A stretch of DNA of 64,000 nucleotides from a bacterium. Its GTDB lineage: Bacteria; Patescibacteriota; Dojkabacteria; SC72; WJKH01. Position numbers and translations under genes: made by a program. Each line of letters starts with the position of its first letter. The first letter of the stretch is position 1. This document shows, piece by piece, positions 3,098 through 64,000 of this stretch. A model generated the notes under the pieces. It did no database searches, was not told the DNA's origin, and was given only the letters and a program-made list of their open reading frames with translations. Location of the stretch: positions 42,796 to 106,795 of the forward strand of contig JAKPPS010000040.1 in NCBI GenBank assembly GCA_029547225.1. Direction: 5' to 3'.

Positions 3098-4375
3098 TTA
3101 TTTAGTTGCTTTCTCGATTTTATCTTTCCCTACAAAAGCTCTCAGAACTTCAGGTACAGTTATCGATCCATCAGCATTTTGATATGTTTCCAATAGAGCC
3201 ACCATAAGACGACTTGTAGCTAGACCAGAGCCATTTAAAGTATGCATATATTTTGGTTTATCATCTTTTTGTGATCGATATCTCATATTTCCCCTACGAG
3301 CTTGATAATCTCTTGCATTTGATACTGAGCTTACCTCATAGAATGTATCCATAAATGGCATATAAGCTTCAACATCGTATGTACGAGCCATACCGCCAGA
3401 ACAATCTCCAGCAGCTAGTTTAGACACTCTATAATGCAATCCCAGTTTCTCGACTAGATTCATAGCTTTATGTAACAATTCGTCAAATGCTTTATCAGAT
3501 TGCTCTGGAGTCGTAAATTGAAACATCTCAACTTTATTAAATTGGTGCATCCTCATTAGTCCTCTCTCATTAGCTCTATAGCTTCCGGCTTCTCGTCGAT
3601 AACATGGTGTATATGCAAAAAATTTCTTCGGCAAAATAGATTCGTCGACAATTTCATCTCTGTAATAATTTGCTAAAGCTGTTTCTGCTGTGGGCAAGAG
3701 AAAATTTCCATCTTGTGTCCAAAAAACATCTTCTCGAAATTTCGGCATTTGTCCTGCAGTATACCCAGAATCCTCACAAAGAAGATGTGGAGGAATAATC
3801 ATCGTATAACCATCAGCAATATGCTCTCTAATAAAAAAATTTATCAAGGCCCATTCAAGTAGTGCACCATCACCAACATACATCGACATCTGTGCTCCAC
3901 CGATCTTAGCAGCTCTTTCAAAATCGACAATTCCTAAATCTGCAGATAATTGAACATGATCTTTTACTTTAAAAGTAAAATTTGGTTTAATACCATGACT
4001 TTCAAGAACCTGATTGTTCTCTTTTTCTCCAGCTAATAGATCATCATCAGGAATATTTGGTAAAACATCAAGTAACGATTTAAGCTTCTCTTCTGTAAAT
4101 CGTAAATCTTCCTCAAGTTGTTTAGTCTGTGCTGAAATCTCCTTTAAATCAGAAATCATTTTCCCAAAATCATCTGATTTCCTATCCATCTGTGACATCT
4201 TATCATTGAAACTTTTTTGTTTTGATCGCAATTCATCATATTTAACTTGTTTCTCTCTACGTGACGAATCTAACGCTATTATTGACTCCAAATTAAGTTC
4301 TTCTGGCTTCATCCTTTTGAGGAGAGCATTTTTCACTTTTTCAGTCTCTTCGACTATTCTCCTAATATCTAGCAT
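3098..4375 (-). CDS. serS: Seryl-tRNA synthetase
   Basis: N-terminal 'MLDIRRIVEETEKVKNALLKR' and a coiled-coil arm. Class II core motifs 'GLMRMHQFNKVEMF', 'TAGQMPKFREDVFW', 'GSGLATSRLMVALLETYQNADGSITVPEVL'. Confidence 0.95.
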   Translation of the reverse strand: MLDIRRIVEETEKVKNALLKRMKPEELNLESIIALDSSRREKQVKYDELRSKQKSFNDKMSQMDRKSDDFGKMISDLKEISAQTKQLEEDLRFTEEKLKSLLDVLPNIPDDDLLAGEKENNQVLESHGIKPNFTFKVKDHVQLSADLGIVDFERAAKIGGAQMSMYVGDGALLEWALINFFIREHIADGYTMIIPPHLLCEDSGYTAGQMPKFREDVFWTQDGNFLLPTAETALANYYRDEIVDESILPKKFFAYTPCYRREAGSYRANERGLMRMHQFNKVEMFQFTTPEQSDKAFDELLHKAMNLVEKLGLHYRVSKLAAGDCSGGMARTYDVEAYMPFMDTFYEVSSVSNARDYQARRGNMRYRSQKDDKPKYMHTLNGSGLATSRLMVALLETYQNADGSITVPEVLRAFVGKDKIEKATK

Positions 4376-5909: not shown

Positions 5910-8114
5910 TTAGTGGAATAATTTTGTTCTAATATCGTTAATCTGATCAGGATTATACTCGTTAATCATCTTTTTTGCTATATCACGAGCTCTTTTAACT
6001 AGTTGAATATCCATAATATCAGCTACTTTCAACTTTGGTATTCCAGATTGAGCTAATCCATATACTTCACCAGGACCCCTACTCTTAAGATCATATTCGG
6101 CGACATCAAATCCTGAGCTGTGTTTTACAAAATACTCTAAGCGTTTATAACTATCACTATTTGTAGAAACATTTTTACTTGCTACAACGAAACAATGTGA
6201 TTGTTTATCTCCTCTTCCGACACGCCCTCTAAATTGATGCAACTGAGCTAATCCGAAGTGTTCTGCATCCTCAATAACCATAATAGTCGCATCAGGAATA
6301 TCTATACCGACTTCAATTACTGAAGTAGCGACAAGTACATCATATTTTTTGTCTCGGAAATCACTTAGTATGGCCTGTTTTTCAATTTCTTTCATTTTGC
6401 CGTGCAAAAGGCCAACACTTAGTCCCTTAAAAGCACTTGATTTCAACTTTTCAAACTGATCAGTTGCTGATAGTGCATCCATTTTGTCCGAATCATCTAC
6501 TAGAGGAAAAATAATATATGCTTGCTGGATATTCTTATCTGTTTTAGCTTGAATAATATTTTGCTTTATCCAGCGATAACAATCATTTCGCTTTGACTGA
6601 GGCACTAAATATGATTTTACAGGAATACGATTTTTTGGCATCTGTTTAATTATCGAAATATCTGAATCACCATACAAAATTTGCGTCAATGTCCTTGGAA
6701 TAGGTGTCGCAGTCATTGATAAGTAATGAGGTACATTTTTATTATCACCCATCTCTTTTAGATATTCTCTTTGTAATACGCCAAATCTGTGTTGCTCATC
6801 AACAACTACTAAACCTACCTTACCGATGTATTGATCAATATCTTTTTTGAATAATATTGCATGAGTACCTATAAGTATAGATTTCTTGTTTTCACAAAAA
6901 AAGCTTACTAACTGATTTCCAGACATTAAGAGATCAATAGAAAAATCATATTGCTTCATATATTTACCAAGTATTTTATTAAATGTTTCATAATGCTGTT
7001 TTGCTAAGATGGTTGTCGGAGCAATAAGAATTACACTATATCCATTTTGTATGGTGAGTAATGATGTGATAAGAGCGATTATAGTTTTACCACTTCCAAC
7101 ATCGCCATTTAACACCCTACGCATAGGTTTACTATTTCGCATATCAATCAATATCTCTTCAAGTACTTTCTGCTGATCATCCGTGAGTGGATAAGGTAAA
7201 CCCGAAATAAAATCATTTAGATTGCATCCCTCCGCCTTAATACTATATGACTTCTTCTTTTCTCTATATTGATTCTGGTATTCAATGTCGAATGCAATAT
7301 TTAGCATTTCATCAAGCGCTAACCTTTTTTTAGCAATCTCAATCTGTTGAGTATTATCAGGAAAATGAATTTGTTCAATAGCTTTATCAAGCTTAATAAA
7401 TTTACTATCTGAAGAAGATTTAATATTTAGTTCGGAATCAGATAAGTATTGTGTTGGTAAAGAATCCGCAATTGGAATTTGGTCAATTTTCAATAATTTG
7501 TAAATATTTTTTCTTATTATTTTCTGAGAAAGCCCTGCAGTTGTAGGATAGAAAGGCGTGATACCACCGATATTAATTTTACTTAAGTTAGGTAGACTCT
7601 TTTTTTCATTAATAATTTCGGATCTTTTATTTTGAATATTTTCTATATCATTTTGTACCTTTATTATATCAGCAGTGTTCTTAGAAGAAGACTCCTCATA
7701 CTCAGTTTCATCAACTTGTTGATACTCTCTAACCTGCAGTGATACAAAACGATCTTTTATCTTTACCTTTCCATCAATAAAGTAGTAGTTATCCCTTTTT
7801 ATTGACATAATAATATATGGTTGATTAAACCAAACTGCCTCAATTTTACCCGAATCATCGATAAGCTTTGCTTTTGTAATCAAAAATCTTCCTGCTTTGA
7901 AACTAGAAATTGATTCTACCTTTGCAACAATCGTGCCCTCACCTTGTTCAATTAATGTCGAGATATTAAGTAGATTAGATGTATCTCTATATTTTGAAGG
8001 TATATAAAATAATAAATCCTTAACATATTCAATACCAAGTTTATGAAGTTTCGACGCAATAAATGAGCCTACACCTTTAAGCTCTGTGATCGGAGAAGAT
8101 AGTGATATATCCAT
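5910..8114 (-). CDS. recG: ATP-dependent DNA helicase RecG
   Basis: N-terminal 'LKGVGSFIASKLHKLGIEYVKDLLFYIPSKYRD' with wedge domain. Walker A 'GDVGSGKT', DEQH box 'VVVDEQHRFGV', 'LSMTATPIPRTL', 'QFRGRVGRG'. A Lys/Glu-rich insert lies between wedge and helicase core. Confidence 0.9.
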   Translation of the reverse strand: MDISLSSPITELKGVGSFIASKLHKLGIEYVKDLLFYIPSKYRDTSNLLNISTLIEQGEGTIVAKVESISSFKAGRFLITKAKLIDDSGKIEAVWFNQPYIIMSIKRDNYYFIDGKVKIKDRFVSLQVREYQQVDETEYEESSSKNTADIIKVQNDIENIQNKRSEIINEKKSLPNLSKINIGGITPFYPTTAGLSQKIIRKNIYKLLKIDQIPIADSLPTQYLSDSELNIKSSSDSKFIKLDKAIEQIHFPDNTQQIEIAKKRLALDEMLNIAFDIEYQNQYREKKKSYSIKAEGCNLNDFISGLPYPLTDDQQKVLEEILIDMRNSKPMRRVLNGDVGSGKTIIALITSLLTIQNGYSVILIAPTTILAKQHYETFNKILGKYMKQYDFSIDLLMSGNQLVSFFCENKKSILIGTHAILFKKDIDQYIGKVGLVVVDEQHRFGVLQREYLKEMGDNKNVPHYLSMTATPIPRTLTQILYGDSDISIIKQMPKNRIPVKSYLVPQSKRNDCYRWIKQNIIQAKTDKNIQQAYIIFPLVDDSDKMDALSATDQFEKLKSSAFKGLSVGLLHGKMKEIEKQAILSDFRDKKYDVLVATSVIEVGIDIPDATIMVIEDAEHFGLAQLHQFRGRVGRGDKQSHCFVVASKNVSTNSDSYKRLEYFVKHSSGFDVAEYDLKSRGPGEVYGLAQSGIPKLKVADIMDIQLVKRARDIAKKMINEYNPDQINDIRTKLFH

Positions 8115-16964: not shown

Positions 16965-19900
16965 GTGCAAAATAATACTATGATTGAAACAGATAAGAAT
17001 AAAAGAATTATACAAATTTCCGTAGTAATTCTATCAATTGCACTAATCCCTTTACTCGTAACATACTTCAATTTAATTAATGAAAAGCTTGAATTACCAA
17101 ACAAAACTTATAGTCAGATAGTAGAAAATACAGGCTTAATAGAAAACTATACAGAATATGACCAAACTAACGCTATAGAAAAAGTAAGTTTATTAAATAG
17201 TAATCCATCAGATATCCAAAATGAAATAAATGCTAACATCGAGATAGATGAAGAAAATCTTGGAAATAACAATGCCGACAATTTGATAAGTACTGTTCAA
17301 AATATACCTATATCGACAATCAAGTTAGGAATAACCGAAGACACTTACACTGAGAGTGGCTATCCATATGCTAGTCCTTGGGATACACGAAGTTTTTTAG
17401 TCGGATACGATAATCAATGGATGAAACAGAAAACTCGTTCATATCTTAAGTATTCACTTGCAGATTTTGCAATCTATGAGATTTTACCAAGAGATATTGT
17501 TTCTGCTGAATTAAACATTTGGCAGTATTACAATGAAAGCAATAGTGATTATCAAGTCGATATAGGAGTACCAAGCAGCAATTGGTCACAATACAACATA
17601 AATTGGTTCAATCAGCCATCATCAGATAATTATTACTCATATACAATCAGTAAAACGATTGGTCGGAAAACATTAGAAATCAAAAGTATTGTTTTCAATC
17701 AACTTGTAAATAACAATTGGGAGAATGGAATATCACTTATTGCATCAAACGAAAATTTAAATGGCGGTATCTTTTGGAGCAATGCTTGCATATATACACC
17801 TGATCTTCCTCGATGTGAACCAGGACAAGAACCATTTGTATTAGTCAGCTATAAGCAGAATGTGCCTCCTACAAAAGCAAATCTACAATACCCAATAAAT
17901 AGTAACGGAAATCCAGAATATATTGATAATAGGAATATTATTTTTAATTGGGGAATTTCACAAGATCCTAATGAAGATGAAATAACATATTATGTTGAAA
18001 TTTCTGACGCTCAAGATTTTTCAACAATTCTTCATAATTCGGAGGGTCTATCCGAGAATAAATATGAATATACTTTTGAAGAAGATGGTCTGTATTTTTG
18101 GCGAATAAAATCCGAAGACAACCGAATTAAAAATAAGTGCCATACATATTCAGATATAGCATATTTTGAAATAGATACTACCGCACCAGATGTACCTAAG
18201 ATTGATTTTATTCCTCCTGTAACCTACGGAAATAATATTGTCCTCTCTTGGCAATTTAATACAGGATCAGAATCGAACCCAGTAACTTTCGGCATAGAGA
18301 AAATATGTGATACAAATGGAGAACAACTGATATGTGAAGAAAAAAGTACTGCTTATCTTAATGAGCTCTTTACTAATGAGATTGAAGATGTAATTTTTTG
18401 TTACAGAGTATTTGCAAGAGATCATTTGGGCCATCAGAGCGAATATTCGGAGACAATGTGTTCAAGACACGATTTTACTCCGCCAATTTTTACGACCTTC
18501 TCTGTAGGACAACAATACTTATCACCACAAAGTAGTCCAGAAGTGCAAGATAAATTAGAAATCTCATATTCATTAAAAGAAACTAATTTAACTAATGCAT
18601 CATTAATCGTTGAAAATCAAAATAGAGAAATCGTAATAGAAACTCCTATTACAGAAATTGAGGATACTTTAATCCCTGATATTCAAAATCTACCCGAGGG
18701 GAATTATTTTGTTTATGCATCAGCATTAGATATTGTAGGCCAAGTTTCTTTATCTCAGATGATTCCCTTTATTATTGATAACACCCCTCCTTTAAAGCCA
18801 AATATAATCTCCCCGACAAATAATCTCTTGAGTAATCAAAAAGAAATAAAGTTTGAAGCTTTAATAGATCCTTATGCAAAAACTGAAGTTTTAACTTCGA
18901 TTAATAGTAATAGCCAAGAAAACAAGTCGATTTTCACTACCGAACTTTCAAGCCGTTTTAAAAGTAAACTTTCTGCAGATGCGAATACCCTTTACGAAGG
19001 TCTTAATAAAATAAAAGTTGTAACAAAAGATAGAGCAGGAAATTCTTCTGAAAGTATTATTGAATTTCTAACTGATTGGACAAAACCTACAAAACCGATT
19101 ATTGAACTCTCTGCAGATGATCAATCAAAAAATCTATATGCAACAATATCTTCAGTCGGAGCTGATAAATATTACATTTATAATTTAGCCGGATTACATG
19201 CGGTAACAGAAAATACTTCTGGTAAAATATTACTAGTAGAAAACTGGTCAGGTAATAGTACATACTCTTTTTCAGCTGTTGCAACTGATAAATCAGGAAA
19301 TATTAGTGAGAGGTCAGAAATTTATTCTTACACTACCCCTTCAGTAAAAGGGGCTTCTTTATTCGGGATAGGTTCAATTATTGATCCTTCTTTTAAACCT
19401 GCATTAATACCTCTTACCTCTCAATGTTTATATAAATATCAAATAACCGACAATCTTATTACAAAAGTGAGTTGCAATCTCTCAGCGCCAACAATTGAAA
19501 AGAATTATAATTATTCCTCAAACAAAGAAAAGTACTTAGTTAGAACATATGGAGCTGATAACGACAAATTATCACTCACAGTAGAGGCTTACCGGTGTAA
19601 AAAGAAATCATTTTTCGATCCACGTACTTGGTTTAAATGTTTTGAAGAGCAATTACCATCAAAGACTAATGTGATTTCAACATATGGTGCTGTATATGGT
19701 ATTTTTCCTGATTCAAGAAATCATTTTGCTGTACGAGAAACAATCAACGATACAGGTGTAAGATTAGATTTCTTTAAAAATGGAGATTATTCTGGACAAA
19801 ATATTTCGATAGAAAAGGAGATGATTTTTTCGCAGAAAATAGGTCAAAGCTGGTTAGATTTTCATGAAACTGTACCTAGATCAAATGAACAAATAATCTC

Positions 19901-20447
19901 TCAATTGATATATAACCCGATTGGAGATGGGTCGAATAAATACTTCAGATTTCCTTTCAATAAGGTTGTTGGTGTAACACAATGGCACGGATATACAGCC
20001 TTTCAGAGTCCGCATATGGGCATTGATTTTGGGGTTTATCGAGAACCAATATACGCAATAGCTGATGGATATGTAGGATATGTTGGTTGGGATAATTTCG
20101 GAGGTGAATGTCTTACTGGTGGCAATATGATTAAAATTATCCACGATAATGGCATGAGCAGTTTGTACGCACATTTAGAGAATTATAAAAAGGCTGATGG
20201 TACAGATTTAGTTTATGGGGAAAGAGTGAAAAAAGGCGATTTAATTGGGCTGACTGGTAATAGCGGTTACTATAATTGTGAACCGCTGGGCTATCATCTG
20301 CATTTTGAATTACGAAAGGATCAATGGCAAAGCTCTCATATTAATCCGACAGATTGGATCGATGTTGATTGGAATGCGATAAATACTCTTAACGCAGATT
20401 GGTATCCAGGAAGATTATCTGGTGATAATCCCCACCCTACTTTTTAA
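16965..20447 (+). CDS. Large secreted/membrane-anchored multidomain protein with C-terminal M23 (LytM) peptidase domain
   Basis: N-terminal TM 'IIQISVVILSIALIPLLVTYF'. The block 'RSYLKYSLADFAIYEILPRDIVSAELNIWQYY...NINWFNQP' resembles DNRLRE-type carbohydrate-binding domains. FN3-like segments follow. C-terminal M23 has 'HMGIDFGV' (HxxxD) and 'GYHLHFEL' (HxH). Confidence 0.8.
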   Translation: MQNNTMIETDKNKRIIQISVVILSIALIPLLVTYFNLINEKLELPNKTYSQIVENTGLIENYTEYDQTNAIEKVSLLNSNPSDIQNEINANIEIDEENLGNNNADNLISTVQNIPISTIKLGITEDTYTESGYPYASPWDTRSFLVGYDNQWMKQKTRSYLKYSLADFAIYEILPRDIVSAELNIWQYYNESNSDYQVDIGVPSSNWSQYNINWFNQPSSDNYYSYTISKTIGRKTLEIKSIVFNQLVNNNWENGISLIASNENLNGGIFWSNACIYTPDLPRCEPGQEPFVLVSYKQNVPPTKANLQYPINSNGNPEYIDNRNIIFNWGISQDPNEDEITYYVEISDAQDFSTILHNSEGLSENKYEYTFEEDGLYFWRIKSEDNRIKNKCHTYSDIAYFEIDTTAPDVPKIDFIPPVTYGNNIVLSWQFNTGSESNPVTFGIEKICDTNGEQLICEEKSTAYLNELFTNEIEDVIFCYRVFARDHLGHQSEYSETMCSRHDFTPPIFTTFSVGQQYLSPQSSPEVQDKLEISYSLKETNLTNASLIVENQNREIVIETPITEIEDTLIPDIQNLPEGNYFVYASALDIVGQVSLSQMIPFIIDNTPPLKPNIISPTNNLLSNQKEIKFEALIDPYAKTEVLTSINSNSQENKSIFTTELSSRFKSKLSADANTLYEGLNKIKVVTKDRAGNSSESIIEFLTDWTKPTKPIIELSADDQSKNLYATISSVGADKYYIYNLAGLHAVTENTSGKILLVENWSGNSTYSFSAVATDKSGNISERSEIYSYTTPSVKGASLFGIGSIIDPSFKPALIPLTSQCLYKYQITDNLITKVSCNLSAPTIEKNYNYSSNKEKYLVRTYGADNDKLSLTVEAYRCKKKSFFDPRTWFKCFEEQLPSKTNVISTYGAVYGIFPDSRNHFAVRETINDTGVRLDFFKNGDYSGQNISIEKEMIFSQKIGQSWLDFHETVPRSNEQIISQLIYNPIGDGSNKYFRFPFNKVVGVTQWHGYTAFQSPHMGIDFGVYREPIYAIADGYVGYVGWDNFGGECLTGGNMIKIIHDNGMSSLYAHLENYKKADGTDLVYGERVKKGDLIGLTGNSGYYNCEPLGYHLHFELRKDQWQSSHINPTDWIDVDWNAINTLNADWYPGRLSGDNPHPTF

Positions 20448-53580: not shown

Positions 53581-54600
53581 TTATTTCAAACTTTTTCTAT
53601 TTACTTTTTTTAAATTTTTTTCTAAAGATTTAATACTTTCAAGATATGCTTTCTCTACAGGTGACAGTGTTTTTACCTGATACTTTTTGTATTCACTTTC
53701 TGCCTTTTTCAATGCCTGATCATGACTTATACTCCCTGCAGTAAGCAATTTACCTTTGCCATATATTCCTACAAATTTTTCAAGCTCACTTAACCAATCT
53801 CTCATGCTCATCCTTTGTTGCTCTATTGCTTTCAACTCAGCTAAATCGAAAAATGCCGACACAAGTCGATTTAGCCTTTGCAGCTCATCAGAACTTAAGT
53901 AATTCTTAGCAACTTCAATCTCTTTTTTTATTGGAATTGGGCCAGAGAAAGTCGTTAATCCCATAAACTCTTTTTCTGCATCCGCTCTAGAATATATCAG
54001 TTCTGGAGCTGTTTGTTTATTAACTGCATAATGAAGTTTTTTCTGAACAGTCGCAAAGAATTTTCTCGACTCTTTACTATTTGGATCATAATCAACACTT
54101 GTTGCATAGAGATCAAGCACCTGTCTGTACAACACTTTTTCACTACTGCGGATATCACGAATTCTATCCAGTAACTCTTTCCAGTAATTCCCGCCTGCAT
54201 TTCCTTTCAACTTTTCATCATCTATTGTAAATCCTTTGATGATATACTCTGTTAACCTTTGTGTTGCCCACTTACGAAATTCTGTACCCCTAAGTGATTT
54301 TACTCTGTAACCAACTGATATTATTACGTCGAGGTTGTAGTATTCAAGATCACGAGTGACATCCCTACTACCTTCTTTTTGAACTTGGCGGAAATTCCGC
54401 CTGGTTGAATTTACTTCAAGTTCAGATTCTTTATATATATTTTGAATATGCTCACCAATAGTTCTTCGAGCTTTATCAAAGAGTAATGCCATCTGTTCTT
54501 GAGTCAACCAAACAGTTTCGTCTTCTAAAATTACATCAATAGTAATTTTTTCATCACTTGTTCTAAACAGTATGATCTCTGAATTGCTATTTTTATCCAT
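53581..54600 (-). CDS. rhuM: RhuM-family protein (virulence/defence-island associated)
   Basis: N-terminal 'EIILFRTSDEKITIDVILEDETVWLTQEQMALLFDKARRTIGEHIQNIYKESEL' matches the conserved RhuM start. It is flanked by roughly 430-bp non-coding regions on both sides. Confidence 0.65.
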   Translation of the reverse strand: MDKNSNSEIILFRTSDEKITIDVILEDETVWLTQEQMALLFDKARRTIGEHIQNIYKESELEVNSTRRNFRQVQKEGSRDVTRDLEYYNLDVIISVGYRVKSLRGTEFRKWATQRLTEYIIKGFTIDDEKLKGNAGGNYWKELLDRIRDIRSSEKVLYRQVLDLYATSVDYDPNSKESRKFFATVQKKLHYAVNKQTAPELIYSRADAEKEFMGLTTFSGPIPIKKEIEVAKNYLSSDELQRLNRLVSAFFDLAELKAIEQQRMSMRDWLSELEKFVGIYGKGKLLTAGSISHDQALKKAESEYKKYQVKTLSPVEKAYLESIKSLEKNLKKVNRKSLK

Positions 54601-56485: not shown

Positions 56486-57931
56486 CTATTTCTTGCCGAA
56501 GAAATCTATTGCAACCCGTAATTCTGGATGAGTTTTCGAATACTCCTCTATTGATACTTTTTGTTGCCATGCTTCACATGCTTGTACCAAAGCTTTTGCT
56601 CCGCTTCGAGTACCCTGTGGATGACTATGAACTCCAGCCCCCATTGTTGTTATAAAGTCAACATCCTGCATAGCATCTATAAATGGTGCGAGCAAAACCG
56701 GATTTAAACCTCCTGAGATTATTGGACATGTTTTCTTCATTTTTCTCCAATCCTGAATAAAGTGCTTTGATCTTACTGAATCGAGAAGATGGTAATTAAC
56801 TTTGTTTTGAGCTTTTTTCTCTTTTTCGATCCAATCCTTATCGATGAAACGATTTACAAAAAGTTCACGACTCACATCATCATCCTTCTCATTTACTTTA
56901 TACCAACTTTGCTCAAAAAAATGTCCGTCACTTTCAATATCAAGTGCCAATTTCGCAGCAACAATATCTTCACCTACAGATCCAGACATTTTACCTATGC
57001 CTGCTGTTCCAGTATGGATACCAGATGCGCCAGCTAATCGAGCTAGTTTTGTCAAAACAGGAACTGTCATACCGAATGGATTTTCAAGCCTTGTAAATGC
57101 ACCATGTCCTGCTCTATGAAAATGTAAAAATACTTCTGGGTATCTTCTACGAATTGTTTGAACAGCTGTCCAGCCAGCAGTTATGCCATCGACCAAAAAA
57201 GCATAACTTCCCGGTTTCATCGTTTTCTTAACTAACTCAGCTCTCTCAATCATTTGATCGAAATCTGCCGCAGAAACATTAAAAGAATGAACCTTTGTCT
57301 GTCCAGTTACTTTTTCTGCTTCATCCATAGCTTGTCTTACATACTTGACCATAGATTCATAATCGCAGAAATCCTGATTTGCTTGAGGTTCATCATTCTT
57401 CACAAAAGCACCTCCACCCGACCAAAAGTCAAAGCATACTTCAGCATACTCAGATGATGTTAATCCAATTTTTGGTTTAATAATAGTACCTAAAATTGGG
57501 ATATCATATAAATCCAAATATTGACGCATATTATCGATAGTGTATGAAGGACCGTCATATTGATCTAGCATAGAAGATGGAAACCAAACATCAAGAAGTT
57601 TACATGCTGAAAGATTCCCCATACCCAAAATATTTCCATTGATGTAGGTTATGATGTTTTGTACATTTCCTCCTCTATCAAATATTCTCCAAGGGAATGC
57701 AATCCATACTAGTTTTTTCTCTCGATCAATATTATAAACTATTGCATTTAATGAGTCAGAGAATCTTGTAGATGTACCAATATTTATATTTGATCCTGTA
57801 GAAGATTCTGCAGCTATCTCAGATGCGGCATCAAGCAGCTCATCACGATAAGTATCTACATGAAAGACAGCCAACATATATTGGTCATTAAATACTTCAT
57901 TTGTACCGAGTTTGATATATTTAGTTTGCAT
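56486..57931 (-). CDS. rbcL: Ribulose-1,5-bisphosphate carboxylase/oxygenase large subunit, archaeal-type (form III or II/III)
   Basis: 'AAESSTG', 'IIKPKIGLTSSEYAEVCFDFWSGGGAFVKNDE' (KPK plus carbamyl-Lys KxDE), 'HFHRAGHGAFTR', 'GIHTGTAGIGKMSGS', 'ISGGLNPV...TTMGAGVHSHPQG', 'SIEEYSKTHPELRVAIDFFG'. It aligns along its length with T. kodakarensis RbcL except for one roughly 40-aa insert. There is no small subunit gene nearby. Confidence 0.88.
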   Translation of the reverse strand: MQTKYIKLGTNEVFNDQYMLAVFHVDTYRDELLDAASEIAAESSTGSNINIGTSTRFSDSLNAIVYNIDREKKLVWIAFPWRIFDRGGNVQNIITYINGNILGMGNLSACKLLDVWFPSSMLDQYDGPSYTIDNMRQYLDLYDIPILGTIIKPKIGLTSSEYAEVCFDFWSGGGAFVKNDEPQANQDFCDYESMVKYVRQAMDEAEKVTGQTKVHSFNVSAADFDQMIERAELVKKTMKPGSYAFLVDGITAGWTAVQTIRRRYPEVFLHFHRAGHGAFTRLENPFGMTVPVLTKLARLAGASGIHTGTAGIGKMSGSVGEDIVAAKLALDIESDGHFFEQSWYKVNEKDDDVSRELFVNRFIDKDWIEKEKKAQNKVNYHLLDSVRSKHFIQDWRKMKKTCPIISGGLNPVLLAPFIDAMQDVDFITTMGAGVHSHPQGTRSGAKALVQACEAWQQKVSIEEYSKTHPELRVAIDFFGKK

Positions 57932-58096: not shown

Positions 58097-59713
58097 ATGA
58101 AAATGAAGAAATTTGCATTAATACTTTTAATTATTTTTTCAACGTTAGCACTTGGAGCTGTTATTGCATACTTTTTTTTCTCAAACAATTATCGAAATAC
58201 AAAGAGCATCACAGTAGATTTTGGTCAAAACGCTTGTATAGAAGAAGATTATTTTTTACCAAATTTATTAAATTTTGTCGAAGCAAGACAGATTCCAGCT
58301 TATGATAATTCAGAGATATCTGAAGAAAATGCCAATGAAACTCAGAATGGCGAAAATGAAAATATCAATAACGATAATATTGTGTGGAAGATAGATAGAG
58401 AGAATTTTGGATTTAAAAATAGCAAAATATGTTTTTCCCCTAATAGCAAGCTAAAACCTGAGACACAATATTATCTGAAGTACCAATGGCTATTTCAAGA
58501 TTTTGAAATAATTATCAATGTAAAAGATATTGAGCATATTATTAACTACGATTCATTTGAGGACTCAAATGGAGAAAGTCTCACTTTTCGTTCAGACACA
58601 GAAAATATGGATTACGAAAGTACCATCCTTATCAACAATGAAAAAATTACTAATCAATGCACCCAACAAAATGAGATTACAGAATGTAAGATAAAAAGTG
58701 AAGAAGTAAAAAATTTGCTTAGGTCATATTCATCAGAAGAAAACACCACAATAAAAATTGAAATAAGAGGTACATACAAAGAGGAAATCGAAATAGAAAT
58801 TCTATCAGGTTTGGCAAGATATCAAGGAGAAAAATACTTAGGCTTTATAGATTTTAACAATGGATATGGCGTTGATAAAAGTGGCCAAGCCATGATACTT
58901 GGCTATACAGAAAAGAATGTCCCAATCCATGGATATATAATTAACAGAAGCATCTGCGAAAATATTATCAACAATGGCGGTTCAGATAGTAAAAATAATC
59001 TTGCTGATTCAAAAGAAAATTTTGATGAGAGCATTAATAATACTTTTTTTTACTTTGGTGCAATCCATGGAAACGAAGCAAATACGGCTCATCTAGTTGA
59101 TAAATGGAAGAGTGATTTAATACAGCATTGCAACTCAATTCCGCAAAATACAAATATAATTATTTTGCCTTCTATAAATCCAGATGGTGTTGCAATTAAT
59201 AACAGATTTAATAGCAATTCAGTCGATCTCAATCGTAACTTCGATACGAAGGATTGGCAACAGATTACTTACTTAACAGATGGTAAAACATTTCTAAACG
59301 GCGGAGGTAACCATCCTTTTTCTGAAAAGGAAACACAATTAATTCGAGATATTATCTTGCTTACTAGACCAGAATTAACTATATCTTTTCATTCATGGGG
59401 AAGAGTTATTGTGCCAGCAGATATAAATAATTCTTACACATACGCCAATTATTACTCTGATTATTCGGGCTACTATGTCGAGGATATCACTGCAAGTGCT
59501 GAGGACAGTTCATTTAATTATGTTACAACAGGATCATTTAATGTGTGGATGGCAAGCAATAAATTATCTGCGCTAACTATAGAACTTTGGGATTTAGAAA
59601 ATGATGACTGGGGTCGAAACCGACTTGCTTTATGGGATACGATTTCTGATATTAACAAACTTTCTTTTCTAAATGACGATATAAAGAAGCATCAAGATAA
59701 AAACGCACAATAA
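58097..59713 (+). CDS. Membrane-anchored M14-family zinc carboxypeptidase-like protein
   Basis: N-terminal TM 'FALILLIIFSTLALGAVIAYFFF'. 'FYFGAIHGNEANTAH' is the HxxE zinc motif. 'PSINPDGVAINNRFNSNSVDLNRNF' is the M14 'N.DG..R.N..GVDLNRNF' motif. 'SFHSWG' may provide the second His. Confidence 0.65.
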   Translation: MKMKKFALILLIIFSTLALGAVIAYFFFSNNYRNTKSITVDFGQNACIEEDYFLPNLLNFVEARQIPAYDNSEISEENANETQNGENENINNDNIVWKIDRENFGFKNSKICFSPNSKLKPETQYYLKYQWLFQDFEIIINVKDIEHIINYDSFEDSNGESLTFRSDTENMDYESTILINNEKITNQCTQQNEITECKIKSEEVKNLLRSYSSEENTTIKIEIRGTYKEEIEIEILSGLARYQGEKYLGFIDFNNGYGVDKSGQAMILGYTEKNVPIHGYIINRSICENIINNGGSDSKNNLADSKENFDESINNTFFYFGAIHGNEANTAHLVDKWKSDLIQHCNSIPQNTNIIILPSINPDGVAINNRFNSNSVDLNRNFDTKDWQQITYLTDGKTFLNGGGNHPFSEKETQLIRDIILLTRPELTISFHSWGRVIVPADINNSYTYANYYSDYSGYYVEDITASAEDSSFNYVTTGSFNVWMASNKLSALTIELWDLENDDWGRNRLALWDTISDINKLSFLNDDIKKHQDKNAQ

Positions 59714-60435: not shown

Positions 60436-60580
60436 TATTTTGTAGTTAATATTTTAGTTTTAATAAATCTAATTATGCTTAGACTAATTAGTATTTTATC
60501 ATACTTGCTGAAAAATGTGAAAAACTATAACGTTTTATTAGTTAATAGTTTATGCTAGGAATATTTATCAAGGTTATCTA

Positions 60581-61360
60581 TCAATAATAAAGGATAAAAT
60601 AACCCGCAACTGTAAGCAACCATATTATACCAACCGGCACAATTACCCTTTGAAAAGGAAATCTCGCCTTACCACCATTATTTCTTTTAATCTGAGCATC
60701 AAGAAGATAACCAGAAACAAAGCCTAACATTCCAAATGCTGGTCCGATCAATAATTTATCAATACCCCATAAAACATGATCGAAATGGAAGTTGATGTAA
60801 TCTAATGAATATAGCGGATAAATAACAGAGCCTATTGTTATCAAAGCTATTAACACGAGTCTTAATTTTCCTAGCTTTTCTAACCAACCTTTTTTTGCGA
60901 ACCACTCTTCAGTAAGCATTGTGATGGCTACCAACATTGCGCCAAGCCACAAACCTGTAATCAAGTCATCAATACCAAGAAATTTTGCCAATCCCAATCC
61001 CGCGGCAACTCCACCTACACATACTGGACATATTGCATAGGCTGAGGTGGGAACAAATAATGTTGCTGCAGAAATAATTGTTGGTAAACTTATTAATGCT
61101 GAAATAATACTTAATGCTTTCTTTGATGATTTGTTCTTTTTTGAATCCTTTTTTCTATTAATATTACTCGATTTACTACTCCCATTATCATGACAATCTG
61201 TTTCCTTATCGTTTAATTCACTATCCAATTTGTCTGTCGTTTTATCATTATTCTTAGTCAATATCTTACCTATAGCAAAAAGCAAGATTAACAGTATAAA
61301 AATTACAACTATCAAAATCTCTGTATTCGTTTTTCCCTTAAGAAATATCTCTTCCATCAA
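60581..61360 (-). CDS. Hypothetical membrane protein with 'CPVC' motif
   Basis: N-terminal TM, Lys/Ser-rich linker, then 4-5 TMs including 'AICPVCVGGVAAGLGLAKFLGI'. Confidence 0.35.
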   Translation of the reverse strand: MMEEIFLKGKTNTEILIVVIFILLILLFAIGKILTKNNDKTTDKLDSELNDKETDCHDNGSSKSSNINRKKDSKKNKSSKKALSIISALISLPTIISAATLFVPTSAYAICPVCVGGVAAGLGLAKFLGIDDLITGLWLGAMLVAITMLTEEWFAKKGWLEKLGKLRLVLIALITIGSVIYPLYSLDYINFHFDHVLWGIDKLLIGPAFGMLGFVSGYLLDAQIKRNNGGKARFPFQRVIVPVGIIWLLTVAGYFILYY

Positions 61361-61672
61361 TTCATTGTTAACAATTTATTACTGATCTAGAATCAACATA
61401 CTTTTTTGTTAATCTAGTAATACTAATTATCTTTTTCAGCGGCCTCGGAATTTTTTTTATTCATTACGAGACTATCCTTTCAACGAATTCTTACCGAGTA
61501 AATTAAGTATAACATTTTTATTGAACTGAAATCAATTAATAAGATTAAATAATTAGCATACAAATTGTGATTACATTATTCTTTTCAAATTGAGGAATAT
61601 CTGATAGAATCCGAAGCAGAAGAGTTTGTTAAACAAATTCTAGGTCCAATCTAAATTATTAAATAAAATAAA

Positions 61673-62269: not shown

Positions 62270-62510
62270 TTACAGTTAAGTGCTTACAAATTATCATTTA
62301 TTTGTAATAGTTTTTGATGATCTTCCCAATAACATCCAGCACAGAACTACCACATAAATTGAACACACAAAAGTACTCTTTGTATTTTGCCCATCAATAA
62401 GATATTTGTTAGCGTTTTTGCAATAGCTTATATTACCAACATAAACAGATATTTTCGCCGATAATAAGGGATAACTTGACATTTTACTCACTTAAATATA
62501 CATTATTCTA

Positions 62511-64000
62511 ATGGAACCAAAGCGCCCCGATTTGCTATACAAATCTATTATTGTCGTTTTGTGTTTATTGTCAATTGGTTTTTCGATTTATTTATATATA
62601 ACACTTCGTAAAATCAGTCCAATAATACAAGCTTCAAGAAGTTCAATACAAGATACTCTTTCTTCAATACAAATTCAGGATAGCTCTGGCAATTACACAA
62701 TTATTTCTCCCAAGGTCGTAATAAATGATATTGTTTCTGCACTTAAAAATGATCCTGCCTTTATTAATTCAATAGCTGGTTTACAAGGTGAGAAGGGTGA
62801 GAAGGGCGACACAGGAGAAACAGGCGCGACAGGTGCACAGGGATTGCAAGGCATACAAGGAGAAAAAGGCCAAGACGGATCCTCTACAGGTATACCAGGT
62901 CCTGCTGGTGCAGATGGTCTTGATGGAGTTGATGGATCGGATGGACTCAGTGCTTACGATATTGCCGTTGCTGAAGGCTATTCGGGTACTGTTGCTGAAT
63001 GGTTAGCTTCATTAATCGGACCACAAGGACCTGCAGGCGCTGATGGTATAAATGGAACTAATGGTCTTGATGGAATAGATGGATCGGATGGACTCAGTGC
63101 TTACGATATTGCCGTTGCTGAAGGCTATTCGGGTACTGTTGCTGAATGGTTAGCTTCATTAATCGGACCACAAGGACCTCAGGGGCTACAAGGTTTGCAG
63201 GGATTACAGGGAATTCAGGGAGAAGTTGGTCCTCAAGGGATTCAAGGTGAAACCGGACTACAAGGGCCCGCAGGTGCTGATGGTATTAACGGAGTTGATG
63301 GGTCAGATGGTCTTAGTGCATATGAAGTGGCTGTCGCACAGGGATATTCGGGTACTGTTGCTGAATGGTTAGCTTCATTGATAGGTCCACAAGGACCTCA
63401 GGGGCTACAAGGATTACAGGGAATTCAGGGAGAAGTTGGTCCTCAAGGCATACAGGGTGAAACAGGTGCTACTGGCCCTCAAGGACCACAGGGCGAACAG
63501 GGTTTACAAGGATTACAAGGAATACAGGGTGAAACCGGACTACAAGGGCCCGCAGGTGCTGATGGTATTAACGGAGTTGATGGGTCAGATGGTCTTAGTG
63601 CATATGAAGTGGCTGTCGCACAGGGATATTCGGGTACTGTTACTGACTGGTTAGCTTCGTTAATCGGTCCACAAGGACCTCAGGGAGAGCAAGGATTACA
63701 AGGAATACAGGGTGAAACTGGTGCTACCGGTCCAGCAGGTGATCCACTTGGCGGGTTGACTGATCCGGGTGCCGATAGAATTATGTTTTGGGATGAAAGC
63801 GCGAATGCTCCAGTCTGGTTATCATTAGGAGGTAATCTTGCAATAACAGAGACAACTTTAGATGCAATAATACCTGCCGATAGTTATGTTACTGGAGTTG
63901 CTTTTACCGGTACAAGCACAAAAACTTTAACAGTAACAAGAAGTAACAGCTTACCAGATCTGACTGCAACATTTGATGATATTGGTTTTGCAAATCCAAT
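62511..64000 (+). CDS. Membrane-anchored collagen-like (Gly-X-Y) repeat protein with phage-tail-fibre-type 'GSDGLSAY(D/E)(I/V)AVA(E/Q)GYSGTV(A/T)(E/D)WLASLIGPQGP' interruptions; 3' end beyond the window
   Basis: I translated it by hand from the ATG at 62511 (frame 0). The frame stays open to the window end, and it is absent from the ORF track because no stop lies inside the window. N-terminal TM 'SIIVVLCLLSIGFSIYLYI', then 'GLQGEKGEKGDTGETGATGAQGLQGIQGEKGQDG...' and four collagen/interruption modules, then a non-collagenous C-terminal region ('..LTDPGADRIMFWDES..'). Confidence 0.8.
   Translation, partial: MEPKRPDLLYKSIIVVLCLLSIGFSIYLYITLRKISPIIQASRSSIQDTLSSIQIQDSSGNYTIISPKVVINDIVSALKNDPAFINSIAGLQGEKGEKGDTGETGATGAQGLQGIQGEKGQDGSSTGIPGPAGADGLDGVDGSDGLSAYDIAVAEGYSGTVAEWLASLIGPQGPAGADGINGTNGLDGIDGSDGLSAYDIAVAEGYSGTVAEWLASLIGPQGPQGLQGLQGLQGIQGEVGPQGIQGETGLQGPAGADGINGVDGSDGLSAYEVAVAQGYSGTVAEWLASLIGPQGPQGLQGLQGIQGEVGPQGIQGETGATGPQGPQGEQGLQGLQGIQGETGLQGPAGADGINGVDGSDGLSAYEVAVAQGYSGTVTDWLASLIGPQGPQGEQGLQGIQGETGATGPAGDPLGGLTDPGADRIMFWDESANAPVWLSLGGNLAITETTLDAIIPADSYVTGVAFTGTSTKTLTVTRSNSLPDLTATFDDIGFANP
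62916..63683 (+). repeat. Nested near-perfect tandem DNA repeats inside the collagen-like gene (modules of ~147 bp, ~219 bp and ~282 bp)
   Basis: 62916-63032 is nearly identical to 63063-63179, with a 147-bp period. The block starting at 63177 ('cctcaggggctacaagg...') recurs at 63396. 63246-63360 recurs at 63528-63643. I compared these by eye. Confidence 0.8.

Follow-up and report, generated by a model that had tools for sequence, protein, structure and literature searches.

A membrane-anchored, collagen-like protein with phage-type modules encoded in a Dojkabacteria chromosome: a putative surface fibre of strain-variable length

The gene, its product and its repeats

At the right-hand end of a 64,000-nt stretch of a Dojkabacteria (Patescibacteriota) genome (contig JAKPPS010000040.1 of assembly GCA_029547225.1; the whole stretch analysed here, hereafter the window) lies the 5' part of a gene for a large collagen-like protein, whose sequence relationships, strain variation and possible role as a surface fibre are our subject. 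Its open reading frame (ORF) begins with the ATG at 62511 and runs without a stop through 64000 (496 codons) and past the window edge. The complete protein, which we obtained via the cluster members of a homologue (P0121), is P0136 with 1133 aa; its first 496 residues are the window peptide exactly, and beyond the window the reading frame stays intact for 637 further codons with neither frameshift nor stop. A partial protein (P0134, HQG57771.1) has the same N-terminus as the window peptide, and 23 contigs that carry this locus were located through a neighbouring protein of 151 aa. The parts of the gene that lie in the window are these:

62511..64000 (+): 5' part of the fibre gene, 496 of 1133 codons, by translation and by match to the N-termini of P0136 and P0134
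62544..62603 (+): transmembrane or signal-anchor helix, residues 12-31 (SIIVVLCLLSIGFSIYLYIT), following a K/R-rich tail of 11 residues, as read from the sequence
62604..62777 (+): AT-rich juxtamembrane linker of 58 residues (32-89), without a match in Pfam or PHROG
62778..63746 (+): collagen-like region of six Gly-X-Y runs and four module interruptions, by Pfam Collagen and sequence scan
63753..64000 (+): start of the beta-rich non-collagen stalk, GLTDPGADRIMFWDES..., homologous to P0140 residues 90-281

An earlier interpretation, made from the DNA letters without database searches (the sequence-only reading), had seen here a membrane-anchored protein that switches from AT-rich to GGN-rich coding, and had proposed a search with the Pfam Collagen profile. 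Both descriptions hold. Residues 12-31 are hydrophobic and follow K/R residues, and Collagen (PF01391) is the sole significant Pfam match (E 7.6e-37; 125.3 bits against a cut-off of 27.2; six stretches). The Gly-X-Y runs of 36, 21, 27, 51, 72 and 27 residues (234 in total) lie within residues 90-412, with X chiefly L/P/E/I, Y chiefly Q/D/T and a single G-S-S-T-G irregularity; neither a second collagen run nor a further module was found elsewhere in the 64-kb window. As to coding, GC content climbs from 0.31 to 0.50 in the collagen part of the same ORF, while GC at third codon positions (GC3) stays at 0.20-0.29 in all four parts of the gene and is 0.24 and 0.25 in a neighbouring RuBisCO and peptidase gene, respectively. 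Since GC3 is unchanged, the jump reflects amino-acid composition (Gly, Ala and Gln codons) rather than foreign DNA, and a foreign origin for it could be ruled out.

Inspection of the sequence revealed no AXA-type cleavage site adjoining the N-terminal helix, and the full-length protein ends in ...EKFGKSISVN, with LPXTG absent. The beta-rich stalk measures ~520 residues and holds two copies of a ~90-residue repeat (…TF.NGL…GGNL…T.I.Q…VGIGT..P…); its remainder is encoded beyond the window together with a C-terminal jelly-roll domain of 190 residues, the tip. Pfam searches with module, stalk and tip returned nothing besides Collagen, and no PHROG family matched the 598 non-collagen residues; PHROG tail-fibre families do match the whole protein (E 1e-58 to 1e-24), mostly via the collagen repeats.

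The collagen region is interrupted four times by a module of 24 residues with the core LSAY(D/E)(I/V)AVA(E/Q)GYSGTV(A/T)(E/D)WLASLI. All four copies (nt 62931-63032, 63078-63179, 63297-63398 and 63579-63680) fit exactly the consensus that the sequence-only reading had given for them, and a profile made chiefly of modules from other proteins recovers each of them with 64-67 bits (E ~1e-20). AlphaFold2, given an alignment of 48 instances, predicts the module as a helix (11-17, AYEVAVA), a loop and a second helix (24-31, VAEWLASL) with a predicted local distance difference test (pLDDT) score of ~94. The cores are located as follows:

62946..63017 (+): module 1 core, LSAYDIAVAEGYSGTVAEWLASLI, by profile match; predicted helix-loop-helix
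63093..63164 (+): module 2 core, at protein level the same as module 1, not in the sister strain; by scan and strain comparison
63312..63383 (+): module 3 core, LSAYEVAVAQGYSGTVAEWLASLI, not in the sister strain; by scan and strain comparison
63594..63665 (+): module 4 core, LSAYEVAVAQGYSGTVTDWLASLI, by scan

At the DNA level the copies are as close as had been stated from the letters, with 115 of 117 nt identical between 62916-63032 and 63063-63179. Exact repeats reach 114 nt, and those of 114 and 102 nt are far beyond chance in 1.5 kb. Tandem Repeats Finder reported the 9-nt Gly-X-Y periodicity only; the long units listed here come from a separate repeat search and our own scan:

62931..63179 (+): 147-nt unit duplicated in tandem; the 102 nt of 62931-63032 recur exactly at 63078-63179
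63201..63448 (+): exact direct repeat of 38 nt, with copies at 63201-63238 and 63411-63448 and a spacing of 210 nt
63246..63641 (+): exact 114-nt repeats 63246-63359 = 63528-63641, with a spacing of 282 nt, that take in modules 3 and 4 and the Gly-X-Y upstream of them

That such a locus would vary in repeat number, as the sequence-only reading anticipated, is borne out by a sister strain (strain B; contigs L001, L004, L007 and L092), which is 98-100% identical to the window across most of the neighbouring 7 kb and carries two modules as opposed to four. Removing 62931-63077 (147 nt) and 63201-63410 (210 nt) from the window yields a gapless match to strain B with 98.0% identity and 3 amino-acid differences in 377. 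The strains thus differ by two whole in-frame units, each of which is flanked in the window by direct repeats that match exactly; the 38-nt pair at 63201-63448 is the one that bounds the second missing unit. We also considered a single deletion of 357 nt between modules 1 and 3 and rejected it, because their spacing is 366 nt and the two-deletion model (147 + 210) is gapless. Three length alleles were seen, of 1014 and 1020 aa with two modules and of 1133 aa with four, and all are in frame; the 1020-aa allele has two extra Gly-X-Y triplets (+18 nt) and occurs in two assemblies. An exact scan of metagenome contigs returned one contig, with the two-module allele. Between the strains, the ratio of non-synonymous to synonymous substitution rates (dN/dS) is ~0.03-0.19, synonymous divergence being 5 to 30 times the non-synonymous one. 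The gene is under purifying selection, and the undisrupted 1133-aa frame of P0136 bears out the earlier expectation that it continues beyond the window.

Modules shared with viral and cellular proteins

The earlier proposal that the interruption is a motif of phage tail-fibre type is upheld by several searches. Taken alone, a 30-residue module matches 12 PHROG families (E 1e-9 to 0.19), six of which are tail proteins and the others of no known function, the tail-fibre families among them matching at E 1e-9 to 1e-5. A 44-residue query found the module in 393 records of phages, for most of which the annotation reads tail fiber, minor tail or tail assembly protein; the hosts span Streptomyces, Mycobacterium, Agrobacterium, Acinetobacter, Xylella and Staphylococcus. 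It is present, in one to seven copies, in 78 of the 120 best collagen-like homologues, and across 214 distinct instances its length is fixed and its register with the flanking glycines is kept (consensus G..G.DG.SAYE.AV.NGF.GTE.EWL.SL.G..G). Examples are the collagen-like fibres of Agrobacterium phage OLIVR4, Mycobacterium phage Rebeuca (gp5) and Streptomyces phage Shawty (gp18), where the same fixed-length module interrupts Gly-X-Y with 61-70% identity over the 44-residue query; these are encoded in phage genomes and lack a membrane anchor, whereas the gene described here is chromosomal and its product anchored. The Phage_fiber_2 profile that had been suggested as a check did not match, neither on the whole protein (E<=1) nor, like the rest of Pfam, on the isolated module (E<=10). 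Sequence and profile searches of PDB chains with the module gave chance-level matches only, and the motif strings retrieved nothing relevant from the searchable literature.

The second distinctive block is the tip. A HMMER search with the non-collagen part against 1.84 billion cluster representatives (clusters at 50% identity) gave 3035 matches at E<1e-10, nearly all via the last ~190 residues. In 143 of the 145 top matches this domain ends no more than 15 residues from the C-terminus, in proteins of 184-2201 aa, and no Pfam or PHROG family matches it. On viral contigs in IMG/VR it is encoded by 207 stretches. One phage contig (L089) has a 253-aa tip carrier among terminase, portal, S78 protease and tape-measure-like genes, with residues 1-37 of the carrier matching a 'baseplate wedge tail fiber protein connector' family, and in P0157 a T4_gp9_10_N domain is joined to the tip. 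Given these baseplate-type N-termini, the tip forms the distal end of short baseplate-attached fibres in phages. Where phage carriers have gp9/10-type N-termini, however, the Dojkabacteria protein has its anchor and a linker without a Pfam or PHROG match. Moreover, none of 80 viral tip-bearing ORFs (0/80) carries the SAYE-type module, so that no phage fibre pairing module and tip was found among them.

AlphaFold2 models the tip (P0122 residues ~380-595) as a beta-sandwich with pLDDT above 90, and the structures in the PDB that come closest to it are CBM61, CBM35, Cry toxin domain III, ephrin-receptor ligand-binding and MAM domains and a Klebsiella phage tailspike. Between the strains the domain is nearly invariant. 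Residues invariant in the tip family (P0122 numbering) are H481, H492-x-H494, H585, E510, D571, D583, R561 and R564. In gp37 and gp12 of T4, H-x-H motifs on the three-fold axis bind metal, and the invariant residues could form a trimer-axis metal site, or else a binding or catalytic site.

For stalk and tip together, the best viral matches in a Foldseek search of BFVD are collagen-repeat proteins of giant viruses, Catovirus CTV1 A0A1V0SAG0 (2e-22) and Klosneuvirus KNV1 A0A1V0SLI4 (2e-20), at 21-25% identity over ~630 columns. Two ORFs on giant-virus-like IMG/VR contigs (L042 and L064) pair long Gly-X-Y regions with the same tip, but no SAYE-type module was seen in them; the ORF on L042 (a contig of 1.15 Mb; ~6001-6531) has 2168 aa, of which ~1929 are Gly-X-Y, and the tip at its end. 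Distant relatives of the stalk (P0123, P0128 and P0132) carry PF13884.

Cellular proteins use the tip, too. A hydrophobic N-terminal segment is present in 9 of the 145 top tip-domain matches. Among them P0140 (474 aa) is made up of anchor, stalk and tip and lacks collagen; in the sister-strain protein (L004), the parts that align with it are residues 305-499 and 721-1011. P0148 joins a hydrophobic N-terminal segment to the tip and is encoded next to SecA, SecDF, Fe-S assembly and tRNA-synthetase genes on a contig of 35% GC. Hence, membrane-anchored cellular use of the tip is not unique to the fibre locus. Synteny between the P0140 locus and the fibre locus was rejected, as the neighbours are not homologous, and so lends no support to orthology. 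The shaft of collagen plus module was found in this Dojkabacteria cluster only, and a scan of genome contigs with the non-collagen part gave one weak, unrelated match, in an archaeal metagenome-assembled genome.

A putative surface fibre and its alternatives

Our findings are best accommodated, with a probability of roughly 60%, by a trimeric surface fibre that has a type II membrane anchor, serves as an adhesin for a partner cell and is made of modules shared with viral fibres. Within this reading the architecture is near-certain, and the function as an adhesin has about even odds. Three chains would form a fibre with a collagen helix of ~67 nm (234 residues x 0.29 nm), the N-terminus being held in the membrane and the jelly-roll domain exposed at the distal tip. 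The helix-loop-helix modules may act as trimeric knots that re-register the three chains between Gly-X-Y runs, and may double as hinges. Because the units are near-identical, in-frame gain or loss of whole units of knot plus collagen is possible, and a change by two of them would shift fibre length by ~20 nm plus two knots. The tip would bind a ligand, probably a glycan, that is exposed on a substrate or on the surface of a partner cell. For an organism whose expected way of life is attachment to other cells, the fibre would thus act as an adhesin. It is this expected episymbiotic life of the lineage that makes adhesion to a partner cell the most likely role. As for descent, the best-supported reading is that the gene has probably long been resident in the bacterial chromosome and that the viral modules in it were co-opted.

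Several observations weigh against this proposal. Trimerisation, the N-in/C-out topology, the function of the knots and ligand binding are all properties that we infer. The stalk is modelled at pLDDT below 50, and the tip matches its PDB neighbours only at the level of a generic jelly roll (TM-score on the target 0.44-0.56, identity 8-13%), which makes 'glycan-binding' a weak label. Every assembly is a short-read metagenome, four contigs that equal the window break in or close to the repeats, and raw data may be shared among the assemblies. Finally, what has been linked to host attachment in cultivated Patescibacteria so far is type IV pili (PMC12206443) rather than collagen-like fibres.

The alternative that survives best, although we regard it as unlikely, is a passive coat or 'hairy nap' as in BclA, which would provide spacing, hydrophobicity or protection (e.g. 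against phages or grazers) and in which the tip would be only a nucleus for trimerisation and folding. In its support, a collagen stalk with a C-terminal beta-sandwich is the layout seen here. In BclA and Scl, repeat-number polymorphism alters fibre length, BclA length reportedly being polymorphic through the number of its repeats, and the same type of polymorphism is found at our locus. The near-invariance of the tip between strains also fits a coat, as many receptor-binding tips evolve fast. However, phages place the tip family at the distal, receptor-binding end of baseplate-attached fibres, its fold neighbours are mostly ligand-binding modules, and although the tip is a jelly-roll beta-sandwich, the 50 best PDB matches include no C1q, TNF or BclA chain. 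In more general terms, Scl1/Scl2, Lcl and BclA resemble our protein in presenting a globular domain on a surface stalk of collagen triple helix. Scl proteins, though, have the opposite polarity, with a C-terminal LPXTG anchor and an N-terminal globular domain, and the NCBIfam scores for Lcl (NF046116; 135 bits vs 500), SclB (121 vs 325) and SclA (101 vs 400; the SclA/SclB models are NF038329 and NF038330) stay far under their cut-offs and come from Gly-X-Y alone.

Considerably less probable is a tail-fibre gene of a phage or prophage, intact or remnant, that happens to sit at the window edge and has nothing to do with the bacterial surface. Both distinctive modules are typical of phage fibres, and the PHROG tail-fibre matches to the whole protein, largely to its collagen repeats as they are, point the same way. 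Yet of the features expected of a phage tail fibre, we found the shared shaft and tip modules but neither a phage-gene context nor an N-terminal tail- or baseplate-attachment domain, the place of which is taken by the membrane anchor. The genes in the window are chromosomal (RecG, an AddA-like helicase-nuclease, SpoIID, a CBM96/M23 protein, a glycan cluster, RuBisCO and an M14 peptidase), and those downstream, known from sister-strain contig L004, encode a 154-aa membrane protein, an alpha/beta hydrolase and an RRM protein. The phage tail or baseplate genes that the sequence-only reading had advised looking for did not turn up, since neither the 62 kb upstream nor the 2.4 kb of downstream sequence covered by L004 contains a phage gene, and the flanking genes are the same in both strains. 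Moreover, GC3 equals that of the host, dN/dS is low and anchored relatives sit among housekeeping genes. The phage origin that had been considered possible therefore stands for the modules only; for the gene itself, chromosomal context and host-like codon usage speak against it.

Two further kinds of phage-related protein were compared. In the collagen-like proteins EPclA-D of E. coli O157 prophages, the lengths of the Col regions vary by multiples of three residues (PMC3368898). The interruption in our protein is different from theirs and shorter, anchoring and genomic setting differ, and PfN (PF08400), Pf2 (PF03406) and PfC (PF06820) gave no match at E<=1 on the whole fibre protein. Nor was a C-terminal S74 chaperone (Peptidase_S74, PF13884) found, since it is the jelly-roll domain that ends the protein. 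The features that define the Scl, Lcl, EPcl and S74-fibre families were thus looked for and not found, and the protein belongs to none of them.

Least probable of all is that the four-module array, or the difference between two and four, merely reflects expansion or collapse in short-read assembly, for although the exact repeats, at 102-114 nt, are longer than the k-mers that assemblers commonly use and contigs end at or near them, copy number is tied to flanking substitutions and the four-module form recurs, which argues against a random artefact. As to the contig ends, L002, L003, L005 and L006 match the window with 100% identity, and their ends are at 62960, 63179, 63198 and 63597. Three of the ends fall within an exact repeat or on its last base (L003 and L005 inside or at the 102-nt repeats, L002 at 63597 within the second 114-nt copy), whereas that of L006, at 63198, comes 19 nt after such a repeat. 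In L001 (GCA_035351115.1, DAOPVN010000012.1) a scaffold gap (N run, 3223-3322) falls in the middle of the collagen array, so that the gene is annotated there as two partial proteins of 191 aa and 796 aa (HNZ70654.1). On the other side, the four-module form is seen in P0136, in P0134 and, through module 3 into module 4, in the JGI contig L002, while the two-module form is found in four assemblies from ENA and JGI. R33 accompanies four modules and H33 two, with 23 more substitutions separating the collapsed sequences, and the third allele, in two assemblies, keeps the frame like the others.

Surface proteins and phage fibres of collagen-like type were known before, as was polymorphism in repeat length. 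What is new here is the combination, in a chromosome of the candidate phyla radiation (CPR), of a membrane anchor with a knotted collagen shaft of phage type and a tip of phage or giant-virus type; a literature search pairing Dojkabacteria with collagen found no paper. A precedent for ultrasmall episymbionts that use phage-like ligand-binding modules on their own surface may be seen in CPR and DPANN organisms, in which phage-type receptor-binding proteins are reportedly targets of diversity-generating retroelements. Those targets have C-type-lectin (Mtd-like) folds, however, whereas the tip described here is a jelly roll and nearly invariant between strains. A wider proposition, that CPR bacteria domesticated receptor-binding fibre modules of viruses as anchored fibres for host capture, whose reach is tuned by recombination of units between strains, is one we put forward tentatively and consider doubtful as it stands. 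If this domestication did take place, knot and tip would represent large, structurally uncharacterised families of both viral and cellular fibre biology. The 24-residue module and the jelly-roll tip are, in any case, two abundant building blocks of fibres without a curated family or solved structure. Beyond type IV pili, little has been described of the means by which episymbiotic CPR bacteria recognise and hold their partners, and an anchored fibre with the tip of a phage baseplate fibre provides a testable candidate for a partner-recognition device. The locus is, moreover, a clean natural case of a prokaryotic collagen whose length varies in frame and by whole units.

Upstream sequence and neighbouring genes

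Directly upstream of the fibre gene, one further feature is the same in both strains:

62476..62504 (+): promoter-like TTGACA-17-TACATT, ending 7 nt before the ATG

The location of this site 7 nt from the ATG, together with the lack of a Shine-Dalgarno sequence, suggests that the transcript is possibly leaderless; promoter-like sites in the region are not more numerous than expected from shuffled sequence.

Identity between the window and L004 is a mosaic. Most 200-nt bins are 98-100% identical, and lower values occur within 58890-59280 and 60480-61670, where the ORF of the M14 peptidase (HQG57766.1, beside the RuBisCO gene) drops to 81-88% and a 258-aa membrane protein with the adjacent intergenic sequence to 70-92%. 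Strain divergence thus clusters in putative surface proteins beside the fibre gene. The RuBisCO large subunit (56486-57931, minus strand; HQG57765.1) is form III-like with PF02788 and PF00016, is 99-100% identical between strains and lies in a chromosome of ~31% GC.

Further upstream, a 1160-aa ORF (16965-20447, plus strand) combines CBM96, a Big_13 Ig-like domain and a C-terminal M23 peptidase, and is a candidate secreted cell-wall hydrolase which, if it acts as such, could matter for an epibiont feeding on its partner cell. It is followed by a surface-glycan cluster of ~30 kb (22000-53000) with GT2 glycosyltransferases, a Wzx-like flippase, a Wzt-type ABC transporter, epimerases/dehydratases and methyltransferases, after which comes a gene of the RhuM family (53581-54600).

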